IMG/VR virus record: IMGVR_UViG_3300032312_001958
DNA: 64,000 nucleotides
Direction: 5' to 3' (one strand)
Source: a virus
Lineage: Duplodnaviria; Caudoviricetes
Below, piece by piece: positions 2,425 through 41,175 of the stretch. The notes beneath the pieces are model-generated. The model did not search any database. It worked only from the letters and a program-made list of their open reading frames with translations, and had not been told where the DNA came from. Every line of letters begins with the position of its first letter. The first letter of the stretch is position 1. A program made the position numbers and the translations under genes.

Positions 2425-2697
2425 ATGAAACCTTATATTGATTCTGAGATTACTGAAAATTCTAAAATAAGAGTATTCAATTCTGAAGTTGATTCAGGTG
2501 AACTACATTGGCATAGAGACCGAGAAACACGATTAGTTGAGGTTATTGAGGGTGATGGATGGTTTTTACAATTAGATAACGAATTACCCGTTAAAATGGA
2601 GATAGGTGGTAAGTATCTTATTCCCGAAGGTATTTATCATAGGATAAAAAAGGGTAATGGTGATTTAAAAATAAGAATAATTTTTGATAATGAATGA
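2425..2697 (+). CDS. Cupin-fold protein
   Basis: WHRD.E...V.EG.GW and IPEGIYHRI cupin motifs. Confidence 0.75.
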   Translation: MKPYIDSEITENSKIRVFNSEVDSGELHWHRDRETRLVEVIEGDGWFLQLDNELPVKMEIGGKYLIPEGIYHRIKKGNGDLKIRIIFDNE

Positions 2698-4195
2698 TTA
2701 TAAAGACATATTAATAAAAACAAAACTTCTAATAGAATATGATAGAGGTAAAACTGTTTTAGAAAATAATGTGTTACTTGAACAACAACTTGAGTATGAT
2801 TCTTATTATAAAAAGGAATTTTTATCCAAAAGAATACAATCTTCCCTTTTTGACTCAGTCGGTGTCCCGTATGGGGCCAGACCTAATGAAAGTAGATTCC
2901 GTGTTCAAACTCAAAGTGAGTGGTATGCGGTTTTTGCTTTATGGTATAGTCAAGAAATAGAGTCATTGTTAGCGGCAAAATGGCAATACAAACCTGAGGG
3001 AGCATGTCCTAAAAATTTGAAAATGCCTAAAAAAGAACTTTGTAAAAGTAATATTAAGAAAAGATTAGAGTACAATAGTAAATCTTCTGCAGATTACAAC
3101 GTTCAAACCATCTGTTATGACGAGGAAATTTTTTATAGTAAACCTTTTGATAAGATTAATTATAATAATTTAACTGTTAGTGACGGAAGATTGAGTAGTT
3201 CAAGTATTAATAGATATAATGGACACATACCTAGTTATGCTGATGTAATTGCTTGTTATGGTCCAAACTTTATTGACACATTTAATTTAATTCAAAAAAG
3301 TAATTTGAGTTTATTTTACAATAGAAGTGCTAGAGGTATGAAACCAGGACAACAATCAGTCCAATTATCTGATATAACATATAAAGGATTTACCATGGAT
3401 GATTTACATAATCTATTGATGGTTTTAGAAATAGGGACTGCGTTCATTCCTGTTGCGGGTCCTGTTATATCAGCGGCTTTAGGAACTGTAGATGCCTCAT
3501 TATATTACGCCGAAGGGGATAAGGATATGGGAGTATTCATGTTGTTAGTAACTTTGGTACCTGAACTTAAAGTTGCAAGTAATATAACCAAAAGTGCTAA
3601 ATTAATGAAAGGGCAAAAGGAGATTGAAAAAAGAATATTACAAGGTAAAGGTTTAAAAAACCTCACACAATTTGAGCTTGAATTTATAGAAGGATTAAAA
3701 ACTCTTAATCCAAAACAATTAAATAAAGAATTAACCGAATCTATAGGTAGAAGAGCTGATAATATACTACAAACACAATCTAAAAATTTAACAGAACAAC
3801 AAAAAGCATATTTAAGACAATATTCTAAAATATATAATACTGAATATTTTGCTTTAGATATGTTAACTGCGGCAGTTGCCGCAACCCAAACGAAAATTGG
3901 GAAAGAATTACTAAATAGATTATCTAATTTATTTGTTAAAAACAATATTGAGTTAGATGAAAAAACTGCTCAAAAAATAATTAAATCTTTTGGTGAATTA
4001 GAACCAAAAAATCAGGAAACTTTAGTAACTGTTTTTGAAGAGAACAAAGAAGAATTTGTGGCATTTGCTAATAATCCTGAAGAGATAACTACCGCCCTGA
4101 AAGGACAAATAAAAACAAAATCAAAATCAAAACAATTTGCAACAAAGGATGAGATGAGTCAGATGCTCGAAGTCATACCTGACGATTTTGATTAA
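2690..4195 (+). CDS. Putative virion-internal protein with N-terminal tag and a hydrophobic pre-toxin-TG-like hairpin
   Basis: N-term LLIEYDRGKTVLEN; central LEIGTAFIPVAGPVISAALGTVDA..GD..GVFMLLVTLVP. Confidence 0.55.
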   Translation: MNDYKDILIKTKLLIEYDRGKTVLENNVLLEQQLEYDSYYKKEFLSKRIQSSLFDSVGVPYGARPNESRFRVQTQSEWYAVFALWYSQEIESLLAAKWQYKPEGACPKNLKMPKKELCKSNIKKRLEYNSKSSADYNVQTICYDEEIFYSKPFDKINYNNLTVSDGRLSSSSINRYNGHIPSYADVIACYGPNFIDTFNLIQKSNLSLFYNRSARGMKPGQQSVQLSDITYKGFTMDDLHNLLMVLEIGTAFIPVAGPVISAALGTVDASLYYAEGDKDMGVFMLLVTLVPELKVASNITKSAKLMKGQKEIEKRILQGKGLKNLTQFELEFIEGLKTLNPKQLNKELTESIGRRADNILQTQSKNLTEQQKAYLRQYSKIYNTEYFALDMLTAAVAATQTKIGKELLNRLSNLFVKNNIELDEKTAQKIIKSFGELEPKNQETLVTVFEENKEEFVAFANNPEEITTALKGQIKTKSKSKQFATKDEMSQMLEVIPDDFD

Positions 4196-4225
4196 TTTTA
4201 ATATTTATATAAAAATAACAACTTT

Positions 4226-5386
4226 ATGAAAAAATTTTTTATAACAGAGTCTGAAATAAAACATATTAAATCCTTATATATTACGGAAGATATTTTAAAT
4301 GAGGGAATACCTGGTCTTAGTTCGGCTGTTAAAGTGGGTATGAAACAAGGGTTAGGAGATGCATCCAAAGCCGAATTAAAGAAGATGATTCAAAAATCAT
4401 TTCCTAAAGAGAATGTAGATGATGTATATAAAAGATTTGAATCAGAATTTGTATCCTCTAAAAATCCGGATAAGGTGATTGAAAAATACTTTAAAGGAGC
4501 TCAAGACGACATGTTAGAAGATTTTTGTCAAATTTTGGCAAAAGAAAGTCCAAGTAAATTCTCAAGATATTCTTTAGATGTAATAAGTACTCCTGAAACC
4601 AGTCGTATTATACGATATGCAGTTGAAAATCCTGAAAAATATACTTTAGAACAATTAGAAAAAATTGATGGTGGTTATAGAGATATTTTAGAAACCTTAG
4701 ATGATACTGACCCATTTACTTTAGAAGTTAAAAATAACTTGGAAACACAATATGGGGATAAATTAAAACAAAACATCGAATCAAAAAAAGGAGCATCGTC
4801 ATCCTCCTCCTCCTCATCAAAATTGGATGAATTAGGAATCACGACTCAAATTCAAAATTATTTAAATCCTAATAGATTTGATGGTTTAAATAGACAAGCA
4901 TTTGATGCCCAATTTGTACTTACAAAAAATAATTTATCACGTACATCTGACATATTTTCAAACCAAACATTATTAAATGACTTGTTTGGTACCATTTTTT
5001 CAAAAAACGCAACTGCAGAACAAATCCAAGAGTTACTTAATGCTATGAGTATGAAAATAGCATTTAATAAAGAACAACAAGAAGTTTTTGGTAAATTATT
5101 AAATTATTTTTCAACAGGTAAAAACCCTTCATTTGGAAAATATCAAACCCCATGGTTAAATGACCTTGCGAATATGAGTTCAAGCGCTTGGAACGGTGCT
5201 AAACCTATTGTTGAACCTATAGCAGATAAATTAGTAAAGAAAGGTGTTAAAGCTTTAAAAGTTGCGGGAATTACTGTTGGGATTGTGGTTTTCTTAGTTA
5301 TTGTTTTACTATTTTCGGCAATTTCAGCGTTAAGAGGTGGGGGAAGTAAGAAAGAAAGAAAATATAATTCTAAGTACGAAGATTAA
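4226..5386 (+). CDS. Tagged helical protein with a C-terminal TM segment
   Basis: MKKFFITESEIKHIK..ILNE; C-term VAGITVGIVVFLVIVLLFSAISAL. Confidence 0.6.
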   Translation: MKKFFITESEIKHIKSLYITEDILNEGIPGLSSAVKVGMKQGLGDASKAELKKMIQKSFPKENVDDVYKRFESEFVSSKNPDKVIEKYFKGAQDDMLEDFCQILAKESPSKFSRYSLDVISTPETSRIIRYAVENPEKYTLEQLEKIDGGYRDILETLDDTDPFTLEVKNNLETQYGDKLKQNIESKKGASSSSSSSSKLDELGITTQIQNYLNPNRFDGLNRQAFDAQFVLTKNNLSRTSDIFSNQTLLNDLFGTIFSKNATAEQIQELLNAMSMKIAFNKEQQEVFGKLLNYFSTGKNPSFGKYQTPWLNDLANMSSSAWNGAKPIVEPIADKLVKKGVKALKVAGITVGIVVFLVIVLLFSAISALRGGGSKKERKYNSKYED

Positions 5387-6006
5387 TTAAATTTTTTTAA
5401 TATTTTTTCAAAAATATTTTTTAAAGTTTTAGAAGTAATTATTGTTAATCCCCAAGCGGAGACTCTCTTAGTTAGTTCTAAAATTTCATCATCAGTTATT
5501 GAGTGTGATGTTGAGATTTGTAATAATATAGGAATTATTGGAATTAAAAAAGAATACGCAATAATTCCTGACATTGTGTTAACAGTTATATTTAACCCAC
5601 TTAAAAAATTTAAAAAAGTATTTTTTAAATCTGAGGCCTTTTCTTTAACAATTAAAAAATTTTCATAAAGACCTTTTTCTTTTAATAAATTTTTAATTTT
5701 TTTAAAATTATCAGAATTTTGAAAAATTACTGAAAACACTACACCAATTAAAATTAAGGATTTGTCGGTTGAGGTTAACTCGGGCATTTGTCCGTCAATT
5801 AACTGACTTAAAGGAGTTAAAAACCCGCCAATTGCCGAACTCCATGTTAATAATAATTTAAAATCTAAACTTAAACTACCTTTAACTTCTGAGTATATTT
5901 TTTTTACTAAATTTTCGGAATTATTTTTTACATTTTCTAAATCATTAGAAACTGATTCAATAATCAATAATCGTCTTTGTGATTCACTTAATATTAATGT
6001 TGACAT
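5383..6006 (-). CDS. Tagged multi-helix membrane protein
   Basis: MSTLILSESQRRLLIIE; 3-4 hydrophobic segments. Confidence 0.6.
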   Translation of the reverse strand: MSTLILSESQRRLLIIESVSNDLENVKNNSENLVKKIYSEVKGSLSLDFKLLLTWSSAIGGFLTPLSQLIDGQMPELTSTDKSLILIGVVFSVIFQNSDNFKKIKNLLKEKGLYENFLIVKEKASDLKNTFLNFLSGLNITVNTMSGIIAYSFLIPIIPILLQISTSHSITDDEILELTKRVSAWGLTIITSKTLKNIFEKILKKFN

Positions 6007-6017
6007 ATTTATAAATA
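6006..6017. promoter_or_regulatory. Bidirectional putative late promoter, palindrome TATTTATAAATA
   Basis: Perfect palindrome between divergent ATGs at 6006 and 6019, only 12 nt apart. Confidence 0.7.
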
Positions 6018-6018
6018 T

Positions 6019-6600
6019 ATGAGTAAAAGAATTAAACCTGAATTGAAAATTGGTGACAGGATAGTTTGTCTAGAAATGGAGGATGAACCAAAATATTTTG
6101 GAGAAAGGGGTACAGTTACCAAAATTAATAAAGGACCCGGATTTCTTCAATATAATGTGGAATGGGATAATGGGGGTGGACTTTTTTTACTTGATACCGA
6201 TTCATGGATTTTAGAAAAAGATTTCAAAAAAAAATCAAAAATTAACGAAAATGATGACGTTAATAAACTTGCGGAAAATTCTAAAATATTGAAATATTTC
6301 AAAATGTTGGAAATAAAAAAATATTTGGATTTATTAAGAGAAACAGGTATTGTAAATATGTTTGGAGCATCACCATATCTTTATATTGGGGGTAATATTC
6401 TTAAAAAAGAACATTACGATGTTGAAGACGATAATTTTGAAGATTTGGTAGAACTGGCGGATAACACTAGAAACATAATCATTAGAGGTTCCATGAAAAT
6501 GTTAGAAGATGAGGGTAAAGAAATTACTCCTGAAAATGTTAACAAAGTTATTAGACGTTACTCCCCAAAAATTCTATCTTTTTGGATGACTCATTATTGA
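6019..6600 (+). CDS. Two-domain protein: SH3-like beta domain plus a DUF5049-like domain
   Basis: LKIGDRIV..GERGTV..YNVEWDNG; LRETGIVNMFGA; domains separated by KINE. Confidence 0.55.
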   Translation: MSKRIKPELKIGDRIVCLEMEDEPKYFGERGTVTKINKGPGFLQYNVEWDNGGGLFLLDTDSWILEKDFKKKSKINENDDVNKLAENSKILKYFKMLEIKKYLDLLRETGIVNMFGASPYLYIGGNILKKEHYDVEDDNFEDLVELADNTRNIIIRGSMKMLEDEGKEITPENVNKVIRRYSPKILSFWMTHY

Positions 6601-7330: not shown

Positions 7331-7335
7331 AATAT

Positions 7336-7367
7336 CAAATTTAATAATAATACTTTTTTTTGTCAAA
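7336..7367 (-). promoter_or_regulatory. Bacteroidota-type primary sigma promoter for rmlC
   Basis: TTTG-N20-TAAATTTG on the minus strand. Confidence 0.65.
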
Positions 7368-7402
7368 TGTATATGTCAATATATTTATTGTAAAATCAAA
7401 CT

Positions 7403-7837
7403 ATGAAAGCATATTTTTTAAACATATCTGAAGAAGAAAGAAAACAAATTACTGAAAGACATATTGGTCTATACGATGGTTACAGAACATTACAACCGAA
7501 AGGTAATATGACACCTTTAACTGTTGAGGATTTGGCTGGTGATAAAGATGGGGTAACTGTTTCAAATGAGGGAGAAGTTATGGAATACAGAAACAAGGAT
7601 ATAAATAAAAAAACTAAACAAGTTTGTGAATCTTGTGGTGGGTTATATGAAGGTAAAATGTGTGAACAATGTTCGACTATGAAAGAAGCTGAAGAATGTA
7701 ACGAATGTGGTGATAGTAATAAAGAATACACTATGGAAGAATTAGAGGAAAACGTTAAAGTTAAATCTAAAATTAATTTAATTTCTGAAGAAATTAATAA
7801 ATCAAAAGATTGGTTTAATCGATTAAAAAAATATTGA
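7403..7837 (+). CDS. Tagged protein with three CxxC motifs
   Basis: N-term FLNISEEERKQI, C-term ISEEINKSKDWFNRLKKY; CESC, CEQC, CNEC. Confidence 0.65.
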   Translation: MKAYFLNISEEERKQITERHIGLYDGYRTLQPKGNMTPLTVEDLAGDKDGVTVSNEGEVMEYRNKDINKKTKQVCESCGGLYEGKMCEQCSTMKEAEECNECGDSNKEYTMEELEENVKVKSKINLISEEINKSKDWFNRLKKY

Positions 7838-9021: not shown

Positions 9022-10601
9022 AAAATACAGATTTAAAAAAAATTGTTAGAAAAGTTTTATTAGAGGCGGTAGATACTTCATTGGTAAATAGAATAATTAA
9101 AAAATTAGATAGTTCTAGTTCTCAGTATAGTTGGACTCTTGGAGGAGGGACTGATGAGGATGCGTACGTTAGTGCGATACAAGAAATACCAAATTTTGAA
9201 ACTGCAAAGGCAATCAACGACAAATTTAATTTAAGAGATTCAATAGACGACGAATTTAATTTTGATAAAGATGATGATTGGGAGTATGTTAGTCAAATTT
9301 TTGACCACATGGAAAGTATTGGGGTTAAAGTGATAAATCCAACTAATCAGGATTCTTTTAATTTTGATTTTTCAAAAAATAGGTCTACTATAGGTGGAGG
9401 TGATTCCACTGACCAAGGTGGGGGACAAAAAACACCTGATAAAGAACAAGAGGTGGTTATTTCAAAAGGAAAATGTAAAGACGCCCCATCTCTTACTAGT
9501 ATATGTTCAGGTTCGGCTTATTTAAAGAGTTGTATGAAAGGTGTTAAAGGTTCTAAAGACGATGCCATATCTAAAGTACAAGAATTTTTAATAAGTAAAG
9601 GTTTTAAAAAAGTTTCAAAAACGGGAGAGGTAGATGCGATTTACGGTCCTTTAACTAAAGAAATGGTTAAACAATATCAAACATCTGTGAATATAAAGGC
9701 CGATGGAATTGCTGGTCCTCAAACTGTCTCAACTATGGGTATTTGTAAAGTTACTAATAATCAACAAGGTGGTACACTACCGGGACCGTCACTACCAGGA
9801 CCATCACTACCAGGACCATCATTACCAAGTCCTGACGGTAGTATACCTACAAAACCTGTTGATGACCCACTTGATGTTAAGGAAACAATATGTAGACCTG
9901 CAGATAAACAAGTTATTACGGCTTATAATTCAATAGTTGATAATATAAAATCTGAAGAACCTAATTTTTTGAGGAGGGAGTGTAGATTAGTAATTAATTA
10001 TCAAATGGAACAAAAAGAACATTGTGATAATTTAGAAGAAGTAATATGTTTTTGTGGGACTAAAGCCAGTTCAGGTGACGATGGGTATTCTTATTTGGGA
10101 GAAAGAAAAAAGTATTTGAAAAATTATGTTAAGACTTACTGTAAATCTGAATTTGTAAAAGATGATAATAAACCAATCACCGTAGATAAAAATAGACCAA
10201 TAATTCCCGGATGTCAAACACCTGGAAGTGTTATTGCAATTCTTCAACAGGAAGATGATAAATTAAGTAAAGAAGATTGTAAAATATTATTTAATGAAGC
10301 GGTTAATTGGTATAACTCATGGAAAAAATGTGAAAGAGGGAAAAACTCTCCAAATCCTGCATACAAAGACAAATGTTTTTCTTGTTTAAATAGATATAAT
10401 TTCAATTGGAAAGATTTAGGTAGTGGGGAAAATAAAGTTATGAAGATGTATAATTTTAATAAAAGAGAGATTAATAAAAAACAAAGAAGAGAACTTACAA
10501 GAATGGAATCAATTGAATCTTTAAACACTGCTCTTTTGTACATGAATTATGATATGAATAAAACTTTAACTGAAAATAAAAATATAATTTTAAAAAAATG
10601 A
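9018..10601 (+). CDS. Tagged multidomain protein: annexin-like GTDE motif, peptidoglycan-binding domain, PGPSL repeats, Cys-rich region
   Basis: GGGTDEDAYVSAI; VQEFL..GF..DAIYGPLT..VKQYQ..ADGIAGPQT (PG_binding_1 pattern). Confidence 0.75.
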   Translation: MKNTDLKKIVRKVLLEAVDTSLVNRIIKKLDSSSSQYSWTLGGGTDEDAYVSAIQEIPNFETAKAINDKFNLRDSIDDEFNFDKDDDWEYVSQIFDHMESIGVKVINPTNQDSFNFDFSKNRSTIGGGDSTDQGGGQKTPDKEQEVVISKGKCKDAPSLTSICSGSAYLKSCMKGVKGSKDDAISKVQEFLISKGFKKVSKTGEVDAIYGPLTKEMVKQYQTSVNIKADGIAGPQTVSTMGICKVTNNQQGGTLPGPSLPGPSLPGPSLPSPDGSIPTKPVDDPLDVKETICRPADKQVITAYNSIVDNIKSEEPNFLRRECRLVINYQMEQKEHCDNLEEVICFCGTKASSGDDGYSYLGERKKYLKNYVKTYCKSEFVKDDNKPITVDKNRPIIPGCQTPGSVIAILQQEDDKLSKEDCKILFNEAVNWYNSWKKCERGKNSPNPAYKDKCFSCLNRYNFNWKDLGSGENKVMKMYNFNKREINKKQRRELTRMESIESLNTALLYMNYDMNKTLTENKNIILKK

Positions 10602-22995: not shown

Positions 22996-23787
22996 ATGAG
23001 CTTAGTCAACAAAAAACAAGTATTAACAAAAATGGGATTCAGTCCAAAAACATTGTCCCTTATGACTGAGTCTGAAATATCAAAATTATTCAAGACTTTC
23101 TTAATTGAAACAAAAAAAGAAAATAAAGAAGCAGTTCAGGTAACTAAAACTGTGTTGGATAAAAATAATCCTACGGACGTTAAAACTGCGAATTTTTGTT
23201 TACAAAATCCTTCAGACTCAAAATGTAAAAATGTTGAGATGAAAGAAGGTAAAAAAACAAAGAAAAAAAATCCATGGGCTATTTGTACTTCTGTAATGGG
23301 TGCTGAATTTGGTACGAAAGAAAGAAGTGATTGGACAAAAAAACAAATGGATAAATATGAAAAATGTGTGGTTGGTGTAAAAAAATCAATTAAAGAAGGA
23401 AAAAATCCTATAGAAGTTTTGTTAGAAGATAAATTTAGAGGTATTATTGTAGAAAATTTAAGACCAAAAATAACAAAATCTGATATAATCAAAATGATTT
23501 TTGAAAATGTAGAAATGGCTGACCCGGCAGTTAAACCAAAAACAAAACCTGGAGTTAAACCCGATACGGATTATGACCCATTCATATCACCTGACCCTGA
23601 TGACCAACCTGAAGCTAATACACCTGAACCAAAAACAAAACCAAAACCTGGTGTAAAACCTGATGTTGATTTTGACCCATTTATCTCTCCCGACCCAGAT
23701 GACCAACCTGAGGCAGGTGCTAGAGGTTTAGAGAGTTTTATGTCGGCAGTTAAAAAAATGGGAATGTTAAAAAAAGGTAAGAGATGA
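22996..23787 (+). CDS. Putative head-associated protein with a duplicated KPKTKPGVKPDxDxDPFISPDPDDQPEA unit
   Basis: Translation; internal MTESEISKLF tag-like motif; KKKNPWAICT module between MKE and IKE sites. Confidence 0.7.
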   Translation: MSLVNKKQVLTKMGFSPKTLSLMTESEISKLFKTFLIETKKENKEAVQVTKTVLDKNNPTDVKTANFCLQNPSDSKCKNVEMKEGKKTKKKNPWAICTSVMGAEFGTKERSDWTKKQMDKYEKCVVGVKKSIKEGKNPIEVLLEDKFRGIIVENLRPKITKSDIIKMIFENVEMADPAVKPKTKPGVKPDTDYDPFISPDPDDQPEANTPEPKTKPKPGVKPDVDFDPFISPDPDDQPEAGARGLESFMSAVKKMGMLKKGKR

Positions 23788-25319
23788 ACAACAAAAAAAT
23801 TTTAATAGAACGAGTTAAAAAACTACTCAATGAGGCACCACCTATGAGTTTTGGTCCTGAATTAGGAGGGGCTAGACCAAGTAAAGATTTACAATCAAAG
23901 ATTGAAGGTGGTAAATTACCATTAAGTCAATTTGGATTAACTCAAGCTCAAGTAGATTTCTTTACATCACAAGCATTTAAAGAATCTGTTTTGAATTTAG
24001 AAAGATTAATGGACAGAAGTTCAGGAGTTATTCCTCGACTAACAAGAGGTAATCAAAATTTAAAGAAGGACGCTCAAACCGCCTTTAGAGAATTATACTC
24101 TTTAGTAAGTGACCTATTAGGTGAGTTAATCCAACTACAAGGAAGAAATCAAGAAGAATTAGAACAAATCGCCAATGAGTCAGTTGAAAAGGCGATGGGT
24201 ATTGACAGAAAGTTTTTTGACAATAAGTTAACACTAGATGGTAAGTTTACTCAGGGAGCATTACGTCAACTACAAGGAATGAAAGCAAAAGTTCAAAAAA
24301 TTTCTGATGAAGAAATTATGAAAAAATTTGCAAGTGTTGATGAAGAGAAAAAAGAAAAACTTGAACAAATGAGACAGGAGTTTGAAAGTATGGGTGTCGA
24401 GTTTGATGAGGAGCAAGCTAAAAAGGCGATAGATTCTACTTTTAAAATGTCCCCTGAAGCGATTCAGGCGGCTAAAAAATCATTCTCAGATGAAGTTTCT
24501 AGAAGAATGATTATTAACTTATTCAGACGTGGTATGTCACTTTATTATGTAAACGCTTATGAAATATGTAAAGATAAGATAGAGAGTTTACCTGGTGGTG
24601 ATAGAATTATCGAATTATCTAACGTGTTACAACCGATAATGTTACATATGTATTGGTTATTCCCTGATATTGGTTCTATGGGAACGACAGGAGGAGGACA
24701 AATCGGTCAGATTGAGGTTGTACCACCTAAGAGCGGAAACCAAGGTCAAAATGACGATGAAGAAGAGGATGAAGAAGAGGATGAAACACCAAAACCAACA
24801 CAGCAACAATCATCATCACAACAACCGACAGGACCATTTATTATTAGAGCAAGGGCAATGACTTTACCATTATTAGTTCATGAATTAGTAAAAGGTGTTG
24901 CAATGTTCTTCACGTCAGCAGGTGGTGAAAAAACTGAACAAGGTAGATTGGCAAAACAACAAGCAAGTTCATTAGAAATTGAAGCGTACGATTTAGTTTA
25001 TGGTGAAAAATTCTTTATGGAATTTTACAAAGTTTTTAATAAATTAGTACCCGATAAACAAGAACAAAGAGATTTAACACCATTTGTACTTAAATTTTTA
25101 TCTGAAGAAAAATATGAAGTTTTGGTTGAATTAGCTAAATCATTATTCACTTTAGGATTAACTGACCAAAATTTCGCTGAAAATTTTATAACACAGTTAG
25201 TTGAAAAATCTAAAAAATTAGTAAATAAAATGCAACAAAACCCATCGTATGTTGAAAAGAAAAAATACGGTGAAGAACAGTTTGACGATGAAGATTTTCT
25301 ATCAGGATTAGGATTCTAA
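23784..25319 (+). CDS. Hypothetical helical protein with N-terminal tag
   Basis: ILIERVKKLLNEA; HELVKG motif. Confidence 0.7.
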   Translation: MNNKKILIERVKKLLNEAPPMSFGPELGGARPSKDLQSKIEGGKLPLSQFGLTQAQVDFFTSQAFKESVLNLERLMDRSSGVIPRLTRGNQNLKKDAQTAFRELYSLVSDLLGELIQLQGRNQEELEQIANESVEKAMGIDRKFFDNKLTLDGKFTQGALRQLQGMKAKVQKISDEEIMKKFASVDEEKKEKLEQMRQEFESMGVEFDEEQAKKAIDSTFKMSPEAIQAAKKSFSDEVSRRMIINLFRRGMSLYYVNAYEICKDKIESLPGGDRIIELSNVLQPIMLHMYWLFPDIGSMGTTGGGQIGQIEVVPPKSGNQGQNDDEEEDEEEDETPKPTQQQSSSQQPTGPFIIRARAMTLPLLVHELVKGVAMFFTSAGGEKTEQGRLAKQQASSLEIEAYDLVYGEKFFMEFYKVFNKLVPDKQEQRDLTPFVLKFLSEEKYEVLVELAKSLFTLGLTDQNFAENFITQLVEKSKKLVNKMQQNPSYVEKKKYGEEQFDDEDFLSGLGF

Positions 25320-31989: not shown

Positions 31990-32709
31990 ATGCAAGATTT
32001 GAAAATTTTAGGTCCAAAAGATTCAGGTAAAGGAATACTGATAGAAATGGATGCGGGATATATCTCACCGACAGAGTCTCGTAACTTGGCGGTAATACAA
32101 GAAAGTAAATTGGCTTTAGACTATTCAAAACCTTTTGAGTTCTATGCTGTTTTACAAAAATATAATACACCAAACAGAAATGGTAGAATTTATCCTGAAA
32201 AAATATTAAAAAGAGAAGTTGAAAATTATAAAAAAAATTATATATCAAAAGGAACCGCTCTTTCGGAATTAAACCATCCTGAATCATCATTAATCGATTT
32301 AGATAGAGTTTCTCATATTATCACTGAAATGTGGTGGGATGGACATATACTACTTGGTAAATTAAAACTTTTAACATCCCCTGGATTTCACGAAAGAGGA
32401 ATTGTGTCAACAAAGGGTGACCAAGCGGCCAATCTTTTAAGACAAGGAGTTACATTAGGAATATCATCAAGAGGTGTCGGTTCATTAGTTAAAAAAGGTG
32501 AACAGAATGAAGTACAAGAAGATTTTGAATTAATTTGTTTTGATTTAGTTTCATCACCATCTACTCCAGGAGCATATCTTTTCCAAGACATGGCTGATAA
32601 ACACAAGTACGAAGAAAATTTACAAGAAGAACAATTACAAAAAGCTGAAAGGTCAACAACAAAATCACTTGATTTAATGAAAAAACTTAACGATTATTTA
32701 TCAAAATAA
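31990..32709 (+). CDS. Prohead core protease (T4 gp21-like)
   Basis: NRNGRIYP, ELNHP...IDLDRVSH, LGISSRGVGS, DLVSSPSTPGA. Confidence 0.95.
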   Translation: MQDLKILGPKDSGKGILIEMDAGYISPTESRNLAVIQESKLALDYSKPFEFYAVLQKYNTPNRNGRIYPEKILKREVENYKKNYISKGTALSELNHPESSLIDLDRVSHIITEMWWDGHILLGKLKLLTSPGFHERGIVSTKGDQAANLLRQGVTLGISSRGVGSLVKKGEQNEVQEDFELICFDLVSSPSTPGAYLFQDMADKHKYEENLQEEQLQKAERSTTKSLDLMKKLNDYLSK

Positions 32710-33034: not shown

Positions 33035-34618
33035 ATGCAAAAAATGGCAGAAAATAAAAACTTAGTTGAAGAAGCGGTAATCCAATTAAAAAATTTGGAA
33101 GAAGCTATCAATGAAAACGCAAAAGAAATACTTGAGTCAACAATGAAGCAAGAAATTAGCGAGCTAGTAAAGGAGTCTTTAAAAGAGGCTGACGAAGAGG
33201 AAACTGAAGATTTTGAAGAAGAGGATTTCGAAGAATCCGAAGAATCAGAAGAAGAATCTGATGAATTTGAAATGGATGATGAAGAAGATTCTGAAGAAGA
33301 ATTTGATGAGTTTGAAATGGAAGATGAAGAAGATTTTGAAGATGAAATGGGACAAGATGATGAAGTTATTGACTTCACACAAATGCCTGATTCTGAAGAA
33401 ACTCAAGATTTATTATTAACAGTTTTCAAAAAAATGAAACCAGAAGATGAGGTTGAAATCCAAAAAGACGGGGAGTACGCACATTTGAAAGACGGTGACG
33501 ATGAGTACCTTATTTCAATGAACGAATCTCGTGAAGAAGAAGACGATGATGACGATGAAGAATTCGAATCAGAGTTGGAAGAAACTATCTATGAAATTTC
33601 TATGGACGACGAAACAGGCGAAATGGAAGAACAATGGCAAGCTTTGGCGGCTGATATGGCAATTGCCGCAGCACCAGTCATCGCTGACAAAATGTTTGGA
33701 GACGATGAAGAAGAATTGGAAGAAACTATTTATGAACTTCACATGGATGATGAAGATGATGAACTTCCTTCTCCTCCAAAAGAAGAAAGACCTGGTGGAA
33801 TGTTCTATGAAAGAGACATGGATTTTGAGTATGAGGAAGAAGAAGAAGACGACGACGAATACGGAGAATTACCTATGGACGATTTAGAAGAAATGGATTA
33901 TCAATCTGAAGAATATACAGAAGAAATGATGCATGAAACTACTAAACCAAAAGTTGGTAAGGGTGGTAAAATCGGAAAACCAAAATTCTCTTACAAGAAA
34001 ACTGCTGGTGGATTTAAAGAAAAAATGAAAGCCGCTAATCCTACAAAAGGTACAGGTAAACCAAAGTTTGAATACAAAGAATCAACTGGAAAGATGAAGA
34101 AAGGTGAATTTAAAGAAGCTTCTCGTACATTAGGTTCAGGTTCAAAATTCAGAAAAGGTGGTCTACCAAAACCAAAAGCTCATTCAGCATTCAATATTAA
34201 TATTGAAGAACATTATTCTTTGATGGAAGAAGTAGAAATGTTGAGAACTAAAAATGAAGAGTACAGAAAAGCTTTGAATATTTTCAGAGACAAACTTAAC
34301 GAAGTTGCTGTGTTCAATTCAAATTTAGCCTACACTACAAGATTATTTACTGAACACACAACATCAAAACAAGAAAAAATAAATGTTTTGAGAAGATTTG
34401 ATTCTGTGGAAACACTTAAAGAATCTAAAAATCTATACAAAACTATTAAGGACGAATTATCATCAACTACTAAAGGAAAAATAACTGAGTCAATAGAAAA
34501 AGTTATGGACAACGAACCAGTAATTACAGGGTCGGCTCAAAACTTAATTGAATCTAAGACTTACGAAAATCCTCAGTTTATGAGAATGAAAGACTTAATG
34601 ACAAAAATAATAAAATAA
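33035..34618 (+). CDS. Prohead core scaffolding protein (T4 gp22-like)
   Basis: Very acidic, coiled-coil ends, between protease and MCP; ATG 33035 (or 33044) follows TATTTAT. Confidence 0.85.
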   Translation: MQKMAENKNLVEEAVIQLKNLEEAINENAKEILESTMKQEISELVKESLKEADEEETEDFEEEDFEESEESEEESDEFEMDDEEDSEEEFDEFEMEDEEDFEDEMGQDDEVIDFTQMPDSEETQDLLLTVFKKMKPEDEVEIQKDGEYAHLKDGDDEYLISMNESREEEDDDDDEEFESELEETIYEISMDDETGEMEEQWQALAADMAIAAAPVIADKMFGDDEEELEETIYELHMDDEDDELPSPPKEERPGGMFYERDMDFEYEEEEEDDDEYGELPMDDLEEMDYQSEEYTEEMMHETTKPKVGKGGKIGKPKFSYKKTAGGFKEKMKAANPTKGTGKPKFEYKESTGKMKKGEFKEASRTLGSGSKFRKGGLPKPKAHSAFNINIEEHYSLMEEVEMLRTKNEEYRKALNIFRDKLNEVAVFNSNLAYTTRLFTEHTTSKQEKINVLRRFDSVETLKESKNLYKTIKDELSSTTKGKITESIEKVMDNEPVITGSAQNLIESKTYENPQFMRMKDLMTKIIK

Positions 34619-34644: not shown

Positions 34645-36474
34645 ATGGGAGCATTATTAGAATCAGGTCTTGTTGGTAACATCGGTCTTAAGCACCTTAA
34701 AGTTATCAAAGAAGATACTATTAACAAATGGGACAAATTAGGGTTCCTTGAAGGTCTTCGTGGCCACCTAAAAGAAAACGTAGCGCAATTATATGAGAAC
34801 CAAGCGTCTCAATTAATTAACGAAGCTACTGCAGACGGAGCATCAGGTTCTTTTGAAACTGTTGTATTCCCGATTATCAGACGTGTATTCTCTAAATTAT
34901 TAGCGAATGAAATCGTTTCTGTACAAGCTATGAACTTACCAATCGGTAAATTATTCTACTTTGTACCTAAAATCCAAGGATATACAGGTGGTACAGCTAA
35001 CCAATCAGGTGAGCACTATGCACCTGTAGGAGCACCTGGTAACTACCCTGGTGACCCAAATGCGGGATACACAGGAGCAAATGCTTACGCTAAAAACCTT
35101 TACGATTTATTCTACGAAGGTAATGAAGCGGCTCTTGACCCACCTGGATTATTTGACTATTCAAAAGGTCGTTGGACAGCGATTACTGCAACTACTGCGG
35201 TTCAAGTTTGGTCTAACGGAGCTTTAACTGATTCAGCTATTGTTGCTGGTGAAAACAGAAGAGTTATCTTAAAAATTACAGGTTTCCAAATGAGTGGTGT
35301 TGGTAAATTAATCGCTCCTGATGGCTCTGAAGTTGATTCTGAGACATTCTTGTCTGATTTAAGAATTTTCCCAAGAGGATTAAACACTGCAGGTTCAAAT
35401 GGTTTATCTGCGTCTACAAACTGTGCAATTACTAACGCTACTACACCATTGTTGTTTAGATTAGTAACTCAACAATATGGTAAAGGTATTGTTAGCCCAA
35501 CTTCTACATTACAAGGAACTACATGGCCTTCAAACGGTGGTGGTTCTTATGACAACATTTGTGACCAAACAGGTGCTATGTTTATTGAAGTTGACTTACA
35601 GTGTCCAGTATGTGTAAACTGTGGTCAAACAACTCCTGATGGATATTCAGGTACTACTTTATTCTCAGGAAGTTCAGGTTCTTCATTCTTGTCTATCTAT
35701 AGAAGATATGAAGAGTTAGAATTTGAAGACAAAATTGGTGAAGTTTCTTTTGATTTAGAATCTGTAACAGTTTCTGTAACTGAAAGAAAGTTAAGAGCAC
35801 AATGGTCTCCTGAATTAGCTCAAGACGTTGCGGCATTCCACAACATCGACGCTGAGGCGGAATTAACAGCATTGTTATCTGAACAAGTTGCGGCTGAAAT
35901 TGACCGTGAAATCTTACGTGATTTACGTAAAGGTGCGGCTTGGAACTTACGTTGGGATTACAATGGATGGAGAAGAATTGCTAACACAACTTCTTACACT
36001 CAAAAGGATTGGAATCAAACATTGATTACTGCAATTAACCAATTGTCGGCTCAAATTCACAAGTCAACACTTCGTGGTGGAGCTAACTGGATTGTAGTTT
36101 CTTCTGAAGTTTCAGCAATTTTTGATGACTTGGAATACTTCCACGTATCAAATGCGTCTCCTGAACAAGACCAATACAACATGGGTATTGAAAGAGTAGG
36201 TACTTTAGCTGGTCGTTACCAAGTTTATCGTGACCCATACTTCCCAGCAAACCAAGTGTTGATTGGACATAAAGGTACATCTTTATTGGATACTGGATAC
36301 ATCTACGCTCCATACGTACCACTTCAGTTGACTCCAACTATGTACAACCCATTCAACTTCACACCTATCAAAGGTATCATGACACGTTACGCTAAGAAGA
36401 TGGTTAACAACCGTTTCTACGGACGTATTACAGTTGACGGTGTACGTACATTCGACTTACAAGAACTTAGATAA
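34645..36474 (+). CDS. Major capsid protein (T4 gp23-like)
   Basis: PIIRRV...LANEIVSVQAM..P.G, RKLRAQWSPELAQD..AFH.IDAEAEL, G.IYAPYVPL, F.P.KG.MTRYA. Confidence 0.97.
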   Translation: MGALLESGLVGNIGLKHLKVIKEDTINKWDKLGFLEGLRGHLKENVAQLYENQASQLINEATADGASGSFETVVFPIIRRVFSKLLANEIVSVQAMNLPIGKLFYFVPKIQGYTGGTANQSGEHYAPVGAPGNYPGDPNAGYTGANAYAKNLYDLFYEGNEAALDPPGLFDYSKGRWTAITATTAVQVWSNGALTDSAIVAGENRRVILKITGFQMSGVGKLIAPDGSEVDSETFLSDLRIFPRGLNTAGSNGLSASTNCAITNATTPLLFRLVTQQYGKGIVSPTSTLQGTTWPSNGGGSYDNICDQTGAMFIEVDLQCPVCVNCGQTTPDGYSGTTLFSGSSGSSFLSIYRRYEELEFEDKIGEVSFDLESVTVSVTERKLRAQWSPELAQDVAAFHNIDAEAELTALLSEQVAAEIDREILRDLRKGAAWNLRWDYNGWRRIANTTSYTQKDWNQTLITAINQLSAQIHKSTLRGGANWIVVSSEVSAIFDDLEYFHVSNASPEQDQYNMGIERVGTLAGRYQVYRDPYFPANQVLIGHKGTSLLDTGYIYAPYVPLQLTPTMYNPFNFTPIKGIMTRYAKKMVNNRFYGRITVDGVRTFDLQELR

Positions 36475-36592: not shown

Positions 36593-37351
36593 TTAAGATA
36601 AACTGTTCATAATGTTTTCAATTTTAGAAGCACTTCCTGAAACCGCACTATTTCTTCTGGATTGAATTGCCACTTTTTTAAGTTCAGATATGGATGTATT
36701 ACCTTTTGCCACTTCCTCATTAATCTCATTTGCAAATTTTTGAAAGAATCCTGAGCCGTTCCAAGACGCATATATAAAATGAAATAATAATGAATTACTT
36801 TTCATAACAATATTTTTAGCCTCCGGAGATAAGTATTTATCTGCAAGTTTGTTAAAATGAGGTTCCATAATTTTAACTACTAAATCTATTAATCTTTGTT
36901 CTAAATTACCCCCTCTGTAATAACGTTTCCAAACTCTTCTATCTTTATTTTTATCTATTAAATTCCAAAATTCAATACCAGAATTACTGGTATTTAATGT
37001 TCCTCCGTGTTTCCTATCAATTCCAAACATAGTTTCACCTGAGTCACCCATTCCTGACGATTTGTGCCATTGTGGGTTAAAGTACCCACCTTCTAATTTA
37101 TTAATAACTAATTCAGTCATTTTTTTAAAATCACCTGATATAGTTCCAAATGAATTATCTGAACCATTATTGGTAAATGTGTCAGAAGAATTATCCCCAT
37201 CTTTTTTTGCAAATCTACCCCCAATTCTTTTCTTTACTCTATCAAGCATTGCTTGTATGAACGAGTCACCAACAATGTTACTATCATTTTGTTCAGTGAT
37301 ATTATAATTGACAATTTTTTTTAATTGTTCTTCTGTGACTTTAATTTTCAT
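36593..37351 (-). CDS. Tagged lysozyme-fold peptidoglycan hydrolase (GH108-like)
   Basis: VINKLEGGY....GETMFGID; N-term MKIKVTEEQLKKIV..ITEQ. Confidence 0.65.
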   Translation of the reverse strand: MKIKVTEEQLKKIVNYNITEQNDSNIVGDSFIQAMLDRVKKRIGGRFAKKDGDNSSDTFTNNGSDNSFGTISGDFKKMTELVINKLEGGYFNPQWHKSSGMGDSGETMFGIDRKHGGTLNTSNSGIEFWNLIDKNKDRRVWKRYYRGGNLEQRLIDLVVKIMEPHFNKLADKYLSPEAKNIVMKSNSLLFHFIYASWNGSGFFQKFANEINEEVAKGNTSISELKKVAIQSRRNSAVSGSASKIENIMNSLS

Positions 37352-37672: not shown

Positions 37673-38977
37673 ATGAAAGAAACCTATTTAATAAAAAAAA
37701 TCAGGGAAGTTTTAAAAGAAACTAGTTCAAGTTCGGCAGCAGGAATTTATAATATGCCATTAAGCCCCGGTTTAAGAATATGGAAAAAGAAACAAATGGG
37801 TGCGTTCACAGAAAAATTAAATGGGTATCATAACGCTGAGTTATATGTTGACGCATTGGATGGTAATATCGATACTAAAAATGCTGAAGAAAAAGAAAAA
37901 GTATCTGAAAAAATATCTAAATATTATGGGATACACTCATCTCAAAATGATGAAGATGGTGATATATTAAATGATTTTTCAGGTGACATAAAAGAGGCAA
38001 CTGCGGGATATGAAGGTGAATATACTCCTCCGTTGACTTTTGGTAATATCGATTGGGACAACCACGTGTTGGCTCCATTTATTGACCACTCAGGACATCA
38101 TCACAATACTAAAGTAATTAAAAAAGAAGTTAAAGGTAAAATCAAATCCAAAAATAGTGGGTATGTTGAAAAAGACCATCCAAATAAAGGAAAACATAGT
38201 CGAATAATTACACCTAAACAAAATGTTGTTAATGAAGACTTAGCCGTTTGGTTTGGTAAAAAAAAGAAACCAAAAGGTAGTAAACAACCTAAAGGTCCTT
38301 GGGTGAATATATGTAAGAAGGTTGATGGTAAACACCCTCCTTGTGGAAGACCTAAAGCGAGTGACAAAGCGTACCCAAAATGTAGGGCAGCGGGAGTTGC
38401 TGGTAAAATGTCCGATTCAGAAAAAAGAAACGCGTGTCAACAAAAAAGAAGAGCTGAAAAAACACATCCTAAAACAGGTACTGGAAACAAACCTAAAATG
38501 GTTTCTCACAAAACAAATGAAAGTATGTCAAAAAAAATTAAAATAACAGAATCCCAATTAAAAAATTTAGTAAATTTTCTTAACGAACAAACCACATTAC
38601 CAATAACTCTTTCATGTATGGAACCCGATAATCCGAGCTCACCAGGTGTACAATTTAAAAACCTAAGTTTTGTAAATAAATCAACAAAACAAGTTGGGGA
38701 CAAACAAGAAACAACTTTTATTTTTGATAAAACAAGTATGGAAGTTTATAAACAAGAATCAGGACAACAAAAATTCACATTAATTAAAATTGAAAATCCT
38801 GAGTTATCAGATGTACTTGAAAAAAAAGGGTTTAAAAATGCCTCAAGTTTTAATTTCTTAAAAACATACCACTTAAATAGAAAGTTTTATTGCGGGGTTT
38901 TCTTTAATAAAGATAATGATTCGTCAGATACTTTTGCTAAAACAAATAATCTTGTTTCAATTAAAACAACGAAATAA
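37673..38977 (+). CDS. Putative polyprotein of tags and modules separated by xxE sites
   Basis: VLKE/TSSSSAAGIYNMPL; DIKE/ATAGYEGEYTPPL; VVNE/DLAVWF + basic Cys module; TNE/SMSKKIKITESQLKNLVNFLNE/Q. Confidence 0.7.
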   Translation: MKETYLIKKIREVLKETSSSSAAGIYNMPLSPGLRIWKKKQMGAFTEKLNGYHNAELYVDALDGNIDTKNAEEKEKVSEKISKYYGIHSSQNDEDGDILNDFSGDIKEATAGYEGEYTPPLTFGNIDWDNHVLAPFIDHSGHHHNTKVIKKEVKGKIKSKNSGYVEKDHPNKGKHSRIITPKQNVVNEDLAVWFGKKKKPKGSKQPKGPWVNICKKVDGKHPPCGRPKASDKAYPKCRAAGVAGKMSDSEKRNACQQKRRAEKTHPKTGTGNKPKMVSHKTNESMSKKIKITESQLKNLVNFLNEQTTLPITLSCMEPDNPSSPGVQFKNLSFVNKSTKQVGDKQETTFIFDKTSMEVYKQESGQQKFTLIKIENPELSDVLEKKGFKNASSFNFLKTYHLNRKFYCGVFFNKDNDSSDTFAKTNNLVSIKTTK

Positions 38978-38979
38978 TA

Positions 38980-39240
38980 TTATTTAGTTGTTAAAGAATC
39001 TAATTTTTGTAAATCTTCATCACTTACAAAATACAGACCGACAAACTTGTCAAATTCACTCTTAGGTAAGTTTTTAAGATACCTTGCCAATGTTTGTTGA
39101 GAATACCAATCATCTGAATGTACTTCTTGTGGTTGAGTTACACACGTTTTTGTGTTCTTAGAACATTCTTTGTTTGTAACACAAGAAGATAAAAATACTA
39201 TTGATAATAAAACAAAAAAGAATTTGATTGATGATTTCAT
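38980..39240 (-). CDS. Small lipoprotein, possibly o-spanin-like
   Basis: MKSSIKFFFVLLSIVFLSS-C lipobox; TATTTAT 4 nt upstream. Confidence 0.65.
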   Translation of the reverse strand: MKSSIKFFFVLLSIVFLSSCVTNKECSKNTKTCVTQPQEVHSDDWYSQQTLARYLKNLPKSEFDKFVGLYFVSDEDLQKLDSLTTK

Positions 39241-40104: not shown

Positions 40105-40148
40105 TTTTTATTTATTTATGTCTACAAAGATATTACAAAAATTTTAAT

Positions 40149-40667
40149 TTAACAATAAGGTGATGAACATTTTTTCTTACCATCTAAACCTGGCATTCTT
40201 CCTTTACATACTTGTACGGCATAACCGTTAGCGTATGCTGATGGATAAACTTTAAATTTAGATTTTGCGGCTGATTTACCACGAGAACAAAGTTTTGTTC
40301 CTGACTTTTTACGACCTTCATTCATTTGATATAACGCCAAGGCTTCATCAGGGTTATCAATCGCCATTGACATGTCGTCTAAAACATTGTCATTTTCCAT
40401 CATATCGCCATCATCTATATTCATAGACAATTCCATACCATCTTTTTTCGTTTCATTCATTAGAAAGTCAAATACTTGGTCCATATTGTTTTTTGCCTCA
40501 GCAATATGGTCTTGAGCCCAATCATGACCATTAGATAGAATCTCTTCAACCATGTTACGGTCTAAATCTAATAATAAGTCACATTGTCTTCTCATTTGTT
40601 CTAAATTACTGAAAAACATATATCTTTCAGATTCTTCTTTTAAAATTTTTTTAATTAATTTTTCCAT
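40149..40667 (-). CDS. Tagged protein with a basic C-terminal module (DUF5872-like)
   Basis: MEKLIKKILKEE; QMNE/GRKKSGTKLC..AKSKFKVYPSAYANG. Confidence 0.7.
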   Translation of the reverse strand: MEKLIKKILKEESERYMFFSNLEQMRRQCDLLLDLDRNMVEEILSNGHDWAQDHIAEAKNNMDQVFDFLMNETKKDGMELSMNIDDGDMMENDNVLDDMSMAIDNPDEALALYQMNEGRKKSGTKLCSRGKSAAKSKFKVYPSAYANGYAVQVCKGRMPGLDGKKKCSSPYC

Positions 40668-40668
40668 A

Positions 40669-41175
40669 TTATCCTTTTAATTCTTCTTTTAATTGGTCAC
40701 AAATTATTGATAAAAAAGATTCGATTTCCCTTTCGAGTCCTTCATATTTTTCAAACAAATTCTCGCCTTCTTCAGACTCAAAATTACATACTGAATAATC
40801 ACCATCAGATGTACAATATATTTCACCGTAAAACTCATCATTACCTATTGTAAAATAACCTGTATGAATAATCTCATCTAATTTTTGTTCTGTAACTTCA
40901 TATTTAAATGACATTTTTGGTATGTTTGGGGCTCCGTCAAAATTCCAAACTTCACCTGTTTGTACCAATTCTTTTGATGATGTCAATTCCTTATCATCTA
41001 AAAATTCGTTAGTTAATGAATAATGGTCTAAATATTTTTTTTCTTTATCTGTTAAAGATTTCATACCTGAAGAATTAATCTTATCAAGTATTGCATCTAT
41101 TTCTTCCATACCTTCATTTAAAAAGTTATCAATTATAAATTTTAACTGAGATTCTTTTAATATTAATTTTTTCAT
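40669..41175 (-). CDS. Tagged protein with a DUF6576-like helical motif
   Basis: MKKLILKESQLKFII..FLNE; EIDAILDKI..SGM.SLT..EK..L. Confidence 0.65.
   Translation of the reverse strand: MKKLILKESQLKFIIDNFLNEGMEEIDAILDKINSSGMKSLTDKEKKYLDHYSLTNEFLDDKELTSSKELVQTGEVWNFDGAPNIPKMSFKYEVTEQKLDEIIHTGYFTIGNDEFYGEIYCTSDGDYSVCNFESEEGENLFEKYEGLEREIESFLSIICDQLKEELKG

Follow-up and report, generated by a model that had tools for sequence, protein, structure and literature searches.

The window, the whole 64,000-nt stretch of DNA that was analysed, comes from an uncultured T4-like jumbo phage. A few common short leaders head about ten otherwise different proteins, and the ends of the leaders are the cutting motif of the head protease (Table 1). 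Common tags had been noticed in a first-pass annotation, which counted about 15 tagged proteins and interpreted the tags as portable, scaffold-mimicking signals for cargo. The observation is partly confirmed and the interpretation is partly supported. All the quoted motif strings were located where they had been placed. About nine window proteins are supported as tagged and about three more are possible, and the total of 15 is not reached.

Table 1. Positions of leaders, tags and head genes in the window
Positions	Strand	Feature	Evidence
2690..2782	+	D leader of ~500-aa protein ending at 4195	alignment A5/A6
4226..4303	+	A-type leader of 386-aa protein 4226-5386	relatives-only A1 HMM 13.3 bits at N-terminus
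5956..6006	-	possible A-like leader of 207-aa protein 5383-6006	rank 5 of 19,196, window-only matrix
7403..7474	+	A1-like leader of 144-aa protein 7403-7837	A1 HMM 9.2 bits at N-terminus
10530..10598	+	C-terminal D copy on 527-aa PG_binding_1 protein 9018-10601	pairwise matches
23053..23109	+	possible A2-like tag ~20 residues into protein probably starting at 22996	HMM E 1.7
23784..23834	+	short (B) leader of conserved 511-aa protein 23784-25319	junction Leu-Leu-Asn-Glu/Ala
31990..32709	+	prohead protease, T4 gp21 family, proposed tag-clipping enzyme	phrog_207, E 4.6e-49
33044..34618	+	putative scaffold between protease and capsid genes	position and conservation
34645..34824	+	proposed major capsid protein propeptide (gene 34645-36474), ends Leu-Ile-Asn-Glu/Ala	phrog_138, E 1.7e-66
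37292..37351	-	A-type leader of 252-aa protein 36593-37351	A2 HMM 7.0 bits
37341..37418	-	25-codon mini-ORF, A1-type leader and nothing else	A1 HMM 15.1 bits, window's best
37673..37720	+	short (B) leader of 434-aa protein 37673-38977	B leaders in orthologues
38525..38587	+	internal A2 tag in 37673-38977 protein	relatives-only A2 HMM 16.5 bits, E 3.4e-4 over six frames
40635..40667	-	short (B) A2 leader of 172-aa protein 40149-40667	A2 HMM 9.0 bits
41113..41175	-	A2 leader of 168-aa protein 40669-41175	alignment A3 first row; orthologue L001

The prohead protease is 37% identical to T4 gp21 over 138 amino acids, most of the protease domain (E 2e-25). Across 80 relatives the major capsid protein hardly varies over its N-terminal ~90 residues, and its Leu-Ile-Asn-Glu/Ala sequence is invariant. 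BLAST aligns this N-terminus with the start of T4 gp23. The T4 cut site, however, falls at the second x-x-Glu, 11 residues further, and the cut site of the capsid protein itself is therefore uncertain. The putative scaffold probably starts at the Met at 33044. Its N-terminal helix is conserved, its middle is long and acidic, and its C-terminal peptide is nearly invariant; no family match was found for it. The proposal that the tags mimic this protein is not upheld. No model links them to it, and the Glu/Ala junction of its internal site, the proposed scaffold cut site, is not conserved.

The element TATTTAT occurs no more than 35 nt upstream of 22 of the 82 genes, as against 1.5 expected. Among the 22 are the genes for terminase, portal and protease as well as tagged genes or the leaders of their operons.

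Forms of the leader and their junction

Judged by sequence, three leader forms are real in the window phage: the long form A1 (alignment A1), the second form A2 (alignment A3), which has a short form B, and D. The full leader in relatives runs from a Thr-Glu-Ser core through a Lys-Lys-hydrophobic-hydrophobic-x-Glu end (alignment A3). B, a truncated A2, corresponds to the second half of this leader, and A and B are therefore one family. In the 15 proteins of alignment A3, Glu8, Leu11 and Glu21 are invariant and the sequences diverge completely beyond the leader.

The leaders were scored with HMMs trained on relatives only, the window being excluded, at an N-terminal threshold of at least 7 bits. 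It is reached at the N-terminus by five ORFs of the window (the 37341 mini-ORF, 4226, 7403, 40149 and 36593), compared with none of 120 shuffled proteomes. A search of 1.84 billion proteins with the A1 profile gave 1,458 clusters (50% identity) at E <= 1e-3 and 363 at E <= 1e-10, and in about 146 of the best 150 global matches A1 starts at residue 1 or 2. The sequences of relatives (1 Mb) contain 95 tagged proteins. In 80 of them the tag begins no more than 12 residues from the called start, and several of the other 15 are over-extended ORF calls. Three nearly complete relatives (93-100% complete) have 13, 15 and 20 tag matches each. A1 and A2 stand in tandem on one public protein. No cultured phage with these tags was found.

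The A, B and D leaders close with hydrophobic-x-Glu, usually followed by Gln. The A1 junction has hydrophobic-x-Glu in 144 of 150 sequences, with Gln next in 98; the A2 junction has Glu in 18 of 19 rows and is invariant in alignment A3; the D junction has hydrophobic-x-Glu in nearly all of 25 and Glu-Gln in 22. The first-pass annotation had described most of the tags as bounded in this way, like the propeptide of the major capsid protein, and the junction is indeed common to A1, A2 and D, three classes that are unrelated in sequence.

The 4226 leader has two hydrophobic-x-Glu sites at its end and TATTTAT at -24. The 7403 leader, with TATTTAT at -21, is kept in the 75%-identical orthologues L084 and L085. 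The 36593 leader came first of 19,196 windows with a window-only matrix built without it; the body behind it has no sequence match in Pfam or PDB. TATTTAT lies directly upstream of the 37341 mini-ORF. In the 40669 protein the leader is followed by DUF6576 at residues 24-53 (Pfam). Most orthologues of its neighbour, 40149, have the full A2 leader, the short form being found in the window, L021 and L074 (alignment A7). Both forms also occur in the family of 23784, a gene that precedes the one for the terminase. Its junction and the residues after it are identical in 10 of 10 orthologues examined, and orthologues L097 and L098 have the long form (A2 HMM, 6.8-7.2 bits). The window leader of 37673 is not significant with the B HMM, and the orthologue L072 has a short A1 leader instead of B. 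The internal tag of this protein, also present in orthologues L020, L039, L059 and L075, is opened by an in-frame Met and thus has the look of a fused downstream gene.

Four further sites (5383, 22978, the N-terminus of 9018 and the internal site of the scaffold) are, on sequence grounds, weak or unproven members. The 5383 leader scores < 3 bits with the relatives-only models, is kept in orthologues and has TATTTAT at -11. Orthologues of the 22996 protein have a Thr-Glu-Ser ... hydrophobic-x-Glu stretch at the matching place. The 9018 N-terminus scores 2.7 bits, within noise.

In public data the D leader heads three body families without a BLAST link. Its C-terminal copy on the 9018 protein is 52% identical over 23 aa to the L083 leader (pairwise E 0.005) and 42.9% identical over 21 aa to the 2684 leader (E 0.34). 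The D model matches the C-terminus of the 9018 orthologue in an 84-kb relative (E 2.2e-4), and the copy is kept in L084 and L085. Scaffold-like C-termini, which made up class C, were found by pattern at 4 non-scaffold sites as against about 2.4 expected. The HMM of the scaffold C-terminus matched no other protein, and class C pairs were absent among the top similar C-terminal pairs. Of the four motif classes that had been listed, D is real, A and B are both real but not separate, long and short forms being found among the orthologues of 40149 and of 23784, and C is at chance level. Use of the tags at either terminus or internally had also been proposed. The N-terminal position stands, but general use elsewhere does not, there being one C-terminal D copy and internal tags that resemble gene fusions.

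Exchange of leaders and bodies

The tags are portable, as had been proposed. About 36 bodies without BLAST links lie behind tags in the loci of relatives; orthologous bodies carry different tag classes, and different bodies stand behind the same tag in near-identical strains. The body behind the D leader is exchanged between strains with 97-99% identical flanks, the 2690 gene being replaced in these 97-99%-identical strains by one for a 616-aa protein that is similar only in the leader (28 aa, E 5e-5). In strain L083 (97% identical), a segment with a typical A1 leader takes the place of the N-terminal ~130-170 aa of the 4226 protein, leader included.

Where the bodies can be identified, most are domains that bind or cut peptidoglycan. 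A PG_binding-like module is common to many A1-tagged proteins (74-88 of 115 are linked), and "unrelated" is therefore an overstatement for the A1 class. This linkage, which takes in most of the top A1-tagged proteins, would suit an explanation without any address tags, in which the leader is the first helix inherited in a fast-evolving mosaic family, or a residue of cassette recombination, and Thr/Ser-Glu-Glu is an ordinary helix cap. The window-only signal is modest as well. There are 18 similar N-terminal pairs as against 7.3 expected, the C-termini have a comparable generic excess such as amphipathic ends give, and the window-only matrix also scores 12-15 at internal sites in a peptidase and the Clp ATPase. 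However, 46% of same-residue codon pairs in the A1 core differ in codon, and hence selection acts on the peptide and recent DNA exchange is not the source. The bodies comprise several unrelated Pfam domains and dozens of unlinked groups, tag classes are swapped among orthologues, and the tag stands strictly at residue 1, followed by a variable or low-complexity linker. Inheritance or recombination without an address function is accordingly considered very unlikely.

Proposed capsid targeting and its alternatives

The best explanation, given somewhat better than even chances, is that the tags are capsid-targeting propeptides in the style of T4, which the prohead protease removes. The N-terminal leader (A1, A2/B or D; 11-33 residues) would bind a component of the assembling prohead core, and shell formation would enclose the tagged protein. 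The gp21-type protease would then cut after the closing hydrophobic-x-Glu, leaving Gln as the new N-terminal residue in most cases. The cargo, made up of cell-wall-binding and cell-wall-cutting modules as far as its domains are identifiable, would ride in the head and presumably be released into the host envelope at infection.

Targeting to the capsid is favoured because of the N-terminal position of the tags, their scale and portability, the selection on the peptide, the junction, the gp21 homologue and TATTTAT, and because of the clustering of tagged genes behind the capsid gene in relatives. Another point for it comes from Flavobacterium phage immuto, in which a 73-aa homologue of the B-tagged 37673 module is encoded between the portal and protease genes, the place of the prohead-core genes 67 and 68 in T4. 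Several points count against it. Gln after Glu is not among the cut-site preferences stated for the protease family in the cited papers, where only a preference of SPN3US for Ser is given (PMC10052503). The tag arrays of complete genomes are dispersed, at distances of tens to ~100 kb from the head genes. Wall-active head cargo is not an obvious need either, since a baseplate lysozyme normally opens the cell wall for T4-type tails.

The leaders could instead address other parts of the virion, the tail-tube lumen or the baseplate, from which the tail would deliver the wall-active cargo. Such leaders would be comparable to the N-terminal packing signals that payloads of extracellular contractile injection systems (eCIS) carry. 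The tagged bodies include, besides the peptidoglycan modules, Tlde1, TseH and YkuD domains, which are also used by type VI secretion effectors, and the operon 41172 -> 40669 -> 40149 lies outside the head block. Delivery by the tail is nevertheless quite improbable, as a conserved head-protease motif would be purposeless in a tail, the tagged genes of relatives cluster just downstream of the capsid gene, directly following it, and the gene order in immuto places a B-tagged module among head genes.

Recognition by another machine with many clients (a modifying enzyme, a chaperone, the ClpC-like unfoldase or an export route) is also unlikely. The window does encode this unfoldase, a Clp-type ATPase (18220-20262), with a peptidase and tmRNA nearby. 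On the other hand, a search of five related records, of which three are 93-100% complete, gave no radical-SAM gene although every control genome scored, and no modifying enzyme adjoins the tagged genes in the window. The leaders are hydrophilic helices rather than signal peptides, and their junction resembles the end of the propeptide of the capsid protein.

Comparison with known systems

In phage P1 about 30 N-terminal residues of DarB suffice for a foreign protein to be taken into the capsid. Unlike the tags described here, the Dar proteins have no common consensus and no protease-site logic is described for them; P1 has no separate scaffold (PMC9024508).

In the giant phages phiKZ, 201phi2-1 and SPN3US a gp21-related protease cuts many internal head proteins after x-x-Glu, and the paralogues gp53 and gp54 have an identical 15-residue N-terminus containing the motif (PMC5694885, PMC10052503). 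The propeptides of these phages are mostly > 100 residues with Ala, Ser or Gly at P3, whereas those proposed here are short with a hydrophobic P3, and the head genes here are of T4 type.

In sequence, the tags match the established capsid-targeting logic of T4, in which IPI-III and Alt carry a capsid targeting sequence, and gp24, gp67 and gp68 short propeptides, all removed by gp21 (PMC3012670, PMC5694885). The gp21 family cuts after x-x-Glu, and T4 leaders have 10-20 residues (PMC5694885, PMC10052503) compared with 11-33 here. As in T4, a short leader at the extreme N-terminus of diverse, highly variable proteins ends at an x-x-Glu site of a gp21-family protease, and, as in the order of T4 genes 21-22-23, the protease gene is closely followed by those for the putative scaffold and the gp23-type capsid protein. 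Unlike T4, this phage group has at least three sequence classes per genome, interchangeable between orthologues, 13-20 tagged genes per genome, and mostly Gln after the Glu. The identifiable cargo here acts on the cell wall, whereas that of T4 acts against restriction.

Head genes and their relatives

The window has a G+C content of about 29% and carries a head block of the T4 type, in which the genes of the portal, the protease, the putative scaffold and the gp23-type capsid protein follow one another in this order. A gp21-family prohead protease is encoded together with the scaffold and major capsid genes, as is characteristic of a T4-type propeptide system. The closest sequenced phages in INPHARED, of which two are cultured isolates and one is a huge phage known without culture, have a capsid identity of only 41-43%. 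More than 590 capsid-gene relatives at 73-83% are found in IMG/VR, on contigs of up to 321 kb. The comparison covered the loci of 80 of these relatives, 1 Mb in sum, as well as five closer strains and the surroundings of gene 23784 in 14 loci. The hosts of the clade are probably Bacteroidota.

Features of the head block and other mapped elements of the window
Feature	Position	Strand	Basis or remark
Large terminase	25385-27133		
Portal	28732-30549		phrog_213
Prohead protease	31990-32709	+	phrog_207, E 4.6e-49; 37% identity to T4 gp21, E 2e-25
Putative scaffold	ends 34618		500-odd residues, acidic
Major capsid protein, gp23-type	34645-36474		phrog_138
tmRNA	15815-16207	-	21-residue tag; ARAGORN
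tRNA-Arg	12701-12775	-	anticodon TCT; ARAGORN
TATTTAT examples	4202, 6006/6011, 25374, 28717, 31969		window-wide

The reading frame of the putative scaffold (32999-34618, plus strand) is probably over-extended, the Met at 33044 being the start in relatives, and its middle consists of about 265 residues of nearly pure Asp/Glu followed by a Lys/Gly-rich stretch. Capsid-binding tails are common to protease and scaffold in other phages. Protease and portal are alike in their C-terminal peptides (pair-test score 37, not significant), and the C-terminal end of the protease has a weak likeness, likewise not significant, to that of the scaffold.

Leader classes

The first-pass annotation described four classes of short tags, A to D, on some 15 unrelated proteins. 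All of the strings it quoted are found in the window; leaders A1, A2 and D hold up as classes, B is the second half of A2 rather than a class of its own, and C occurs at chance frequency. In the window itself the signal is modest: an unbiased all-against-all comparison of the N-terminal 24-mers yields 18 pairs with a score of at least 30, where shuffles give 7.3, and the highest-scoring ones include pairs of classes A and B. A similar, generic excess of alike pairs is found at the C-termini, among unrelated metabolic proteins, and internal sites in the Clp ATPase and a peptidase are picked up as well by a matrix built from the window.

The relatives strengthen the case for A/B and D considerably. 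An iterated HMM detects 95 tagged proteins in them, 80 of which carry the tag at the very N-terminus, and which fall into about 36 groups unlinked by BLAST plus one likely false-positive group. HMMs trained on the relatives only give N-terminal matches of at least 7 bits in five window proteins and in none of 120 shuffled proteomes. As in T4, the same leader stands at the very N-terminus of several proteins that are otherwise unrelated; "unrelated" is too strong a word for the A1 bodies, however, because many of them are mosaics around one PG_binding-like module through which 74-88 of 115 are linked. A family of 226-252 aa whose N-terminal region is helix-turn-helix-like, drawn in as tagged by the iterated HMM, is probably a false positive. 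It adjoins the capsid gene directly 3' in many relatives (e.g. L025:11896-12585 and L006:3173-3862), a position occupied in T4 by the homing endonuclease gene segD.

The A1 leader is about 31 residues long (alignment A1). The A2 leader comprises about 21 residues, of which Glu8, Leu11 and Glu21 are invariant, with complete divergence beyond (alignment A3); its long form and its short form, B, both occur in the families of window proteins 40149 and 23784. Protein 40149 alone is scored by the B-type HMM in the window (11.2 bits), the N-termini of 9018 and 37673 reaching 2.7 bits, which is within noise, and less than 2 bits, respectively. Flavobacterium phage immuto encodes, between its portal and protease genes, a 73-aa homologue of the first, B-tagged module of 37673. 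The third leader, D, is found on three unlinked body families in public data. In the 503-aa window gene with the called start 2684 it begins at the ATG at 2690, and in strains whose flanks are 97-99% identical this gene is replaced by one for a 616-aa protein that has the leader alone in common with it. The D model also matches the C-terminal end of the 9018 orthologue in an 84-kb relative (E 2.2e-4). Internal tags start with an in-frame Met, as fused genes would. Single short HMM matches deserve limited trust, since the A1 model matches an antisense frame at about 16538 with E 4.6e-4.

Scaffold-like C-termini on cargo, proposed as class C, were not found beyond chance in three tests: the pattern matches four non-scaffold sites in 343,610 residues, where about 2.4 are expected, an HMM of the scaffold C-terminus matched no other protein, and no class C pairs are among the top C-terminal pairs. 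The only real part of this class is the C-terminal peptide of the scaffold itself, which is nearly invariant across relatives. Mimicry of the scaffold by the tags is rejected, as no tag model matches the scaffold. A "tag" within the scaffold was also discarded; its helix is conserved, its proposed Glu/Ala junction is not, and no tag model matches it.

In 1.84 billion proteins the A1 profile matches, at E <= 1e-3, 1,458 clusters formed at 50% identity, and about 146 of the best 150 matches begin at residue 1 or 2. Codon pairs encoding the same residue of the A1 core differ in 46% of cases, which shows that selection acts on the peptide. Three relatives that are 93-100% complete contain 13, 15 and 20 tag matches, mostly in arrays of ORFs of 100-180 codons. 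The proposed portability of the tags is borne out by orthologues that exchange tag classes, and in one public protein (P0024, 264 aa) an A2 leader comes immediately after an A1 leader. In the 84-kb relative, ORFs with A1 and A2 tags form another array at 4300-18200, just upstream of the start of the window, so that the window holds only part of the phage's tagged set.

No match to the A1 or A2 leaders was found by tblastn in 50,697 phage genomes, a search in which the low-complexity filter may hide short ones; the tag-core strings were not found in the literature, and one A1-tagged public protein is on a 2-kb contig with no informative neighbours. The tag HMMs have no significant match in immuto. 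By eye, the proteins at 10712, 11713 and 18322 of immuto, a cultured distant relative, have a similar N-terminal motif of their own ending in Leu-Lys-Glu, possibly what corresponds to the tags in that lineage; two of them are directly upstream of the terminase gene and one is directly after the protease gene.

Leader junction, cargo and gene setting

The three leaders are unrelated in sequence, yet they have a common hydrophobic-x-Glu end. It closes A1 in 144 of 150 proteins (with Gln following in 98), A2 in 18 of 19 and D in nearly all of 25, where Glu-Gln is found in 22. Cleavage after x-x-Glu is characteristic of gp21-family proteases (PMC5694885, PMC10052503), and the leaders end in this recognition motif. 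The N-terminal region of the capsid protein contains Leu-Ile-Asn-Glu/Ala at residue 60, invariant in 80 relatives; in a BLAST alignment with T4 gp23, the T4 cut site falls on a second x-x-Glu 11 residues downstream. Protein 23784 has Leu-Leu-Asn-Glu/Ala, kept in 10 of the 10 orthologues examined.

Recognition of the leaders by a co-encoded radical-SAM enzyme is not supported: PF04055 is found in none of five related records, three of them 93-100% complete, while all 14 control genomes match, and no radical-SAM gene adjoins the tagged genes in the window. Less probably, the leaders would load cargo into the tail lumen, in the manner of the N-terminal packing signals that load eCIS payloads into a contractile tube, would serve another client-handling machine, or would reflect mere family conservation. 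Each of these three explanations fits the junction and the portability less well than loading into the capsid does.

Two tagged bodies of the window have a domain match, PG_binding_1 (9018) and DUF6576 (40669), and the remaining ones have none. Tagged proteins of relatives and A1-tagged public proteins contain PG_binding_1, PG_binding_3, glycine zippers, YkuD, Tlde1, TseH and DUF6861, and an SLT-like match below threshold. Protein 36593 gives the impression of carrying a candidate lysozyme-like motif; a PDB sequence search with it found no match. The AlphaFold model of the 40149 family (mean pLDDT 57.7) consists of a short tag helix and then a low-confidence linker, and its quality is too poor for a fold search.

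The heptamer TATTTAT occurs within 35 nt upstream of 22 of the 82 genes, at distances of 11-30 nt from the start codon, against 1.5 expected, its total count in the window not being enriched (67 vs 58). It precedes, among others, the genes of the terminase, portal and protease, and also the tagged genes or the leaders of their operons. A Shine-Dalgarno-like sequence is not evident. The element is probably a late promoter or a start-site element.

At 15386-15793 (plus strand) one frame of about 135 codons is broken by TAA at codon 36, where a 97%-identical strain has Glu in an intact 134-aa gene; the TAA is a nonsense mutation, a sequencing error or a read-through codon. Close to the tmRNA gene are those of a peptidase (17356-18204) and a Clp-type ATPase (18220-20262). 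In two small proteins (8156-8662 and 38980-39240, both minus strand) the signal peptides are alike and of the lipoprotein type, with Cys after a hydrophobic run.

Proposed capsid loading and known systems

The best available reading of the tags, drawn by analogy and on this analysis one that we somewhat favour, is that they would direct cargo into the capsid. A fuller proposal is made more tentatively, and we consider it rather doubtful as a whole. A widespread clade of uncultured jumbo phages with T4-type heads would use at least three interchangeable, sequence-unrelated leaders ending in hydrophobic-x-Glu-Gln to bring 13-20 proteins of each genome into the capsid, from which they would be delivered to the host envelope. 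Peptidoglycan-binding or -cutting modules, together with domains known also from type VI effectors, would make up most of the cargo, and the leaders would function in tandem, when genes have fused and, in the case of D, at the C-terminus, in a plug-and-play system far larger than that of T4. In a T4-type myovirus, cargo that acts on the cell wall would be out of the ordinary, and it may be asked how head-borne enzymes would reach the periplasm. Should the tags be capsid addresses, sequence alone would reveal the arsenal of injected proteins of an abundant uncultured clade, for which public data hold over 590 capsid-gene relatives and over 1,400 tagged protein clusters, and the leaders could serve as short peptides of natural origin with which to pack foreign proteins into large capsids.

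The propeptides of phiKZ and SPN3US are mostly longer than 100 residues and have Ala, Ser or Gly at P3 (PMC5694885, PMC10052503), unlike the leaders described here, which have 11-33 residues and a hydrophobic P3. The T4-type capsid-targeting and propeptide system is closer: a gp21-family protease, a shared leader at the extreme N-terminus and the junction motif are found in both. T4 leaders have 10-20 residues (PMC5694885, PMC10052503), and the comparison of the present ones with T-even leaders was one of length. The internal proteins of T-even phages are a diverse set in which the targeting sequence is the only common part (PMC3012670). Loading into the capsid by these leaders would not be a system of a new kind but an expansion of the T4 one, whose "target and clip" device would have grown into a multi-tag, swappable one.
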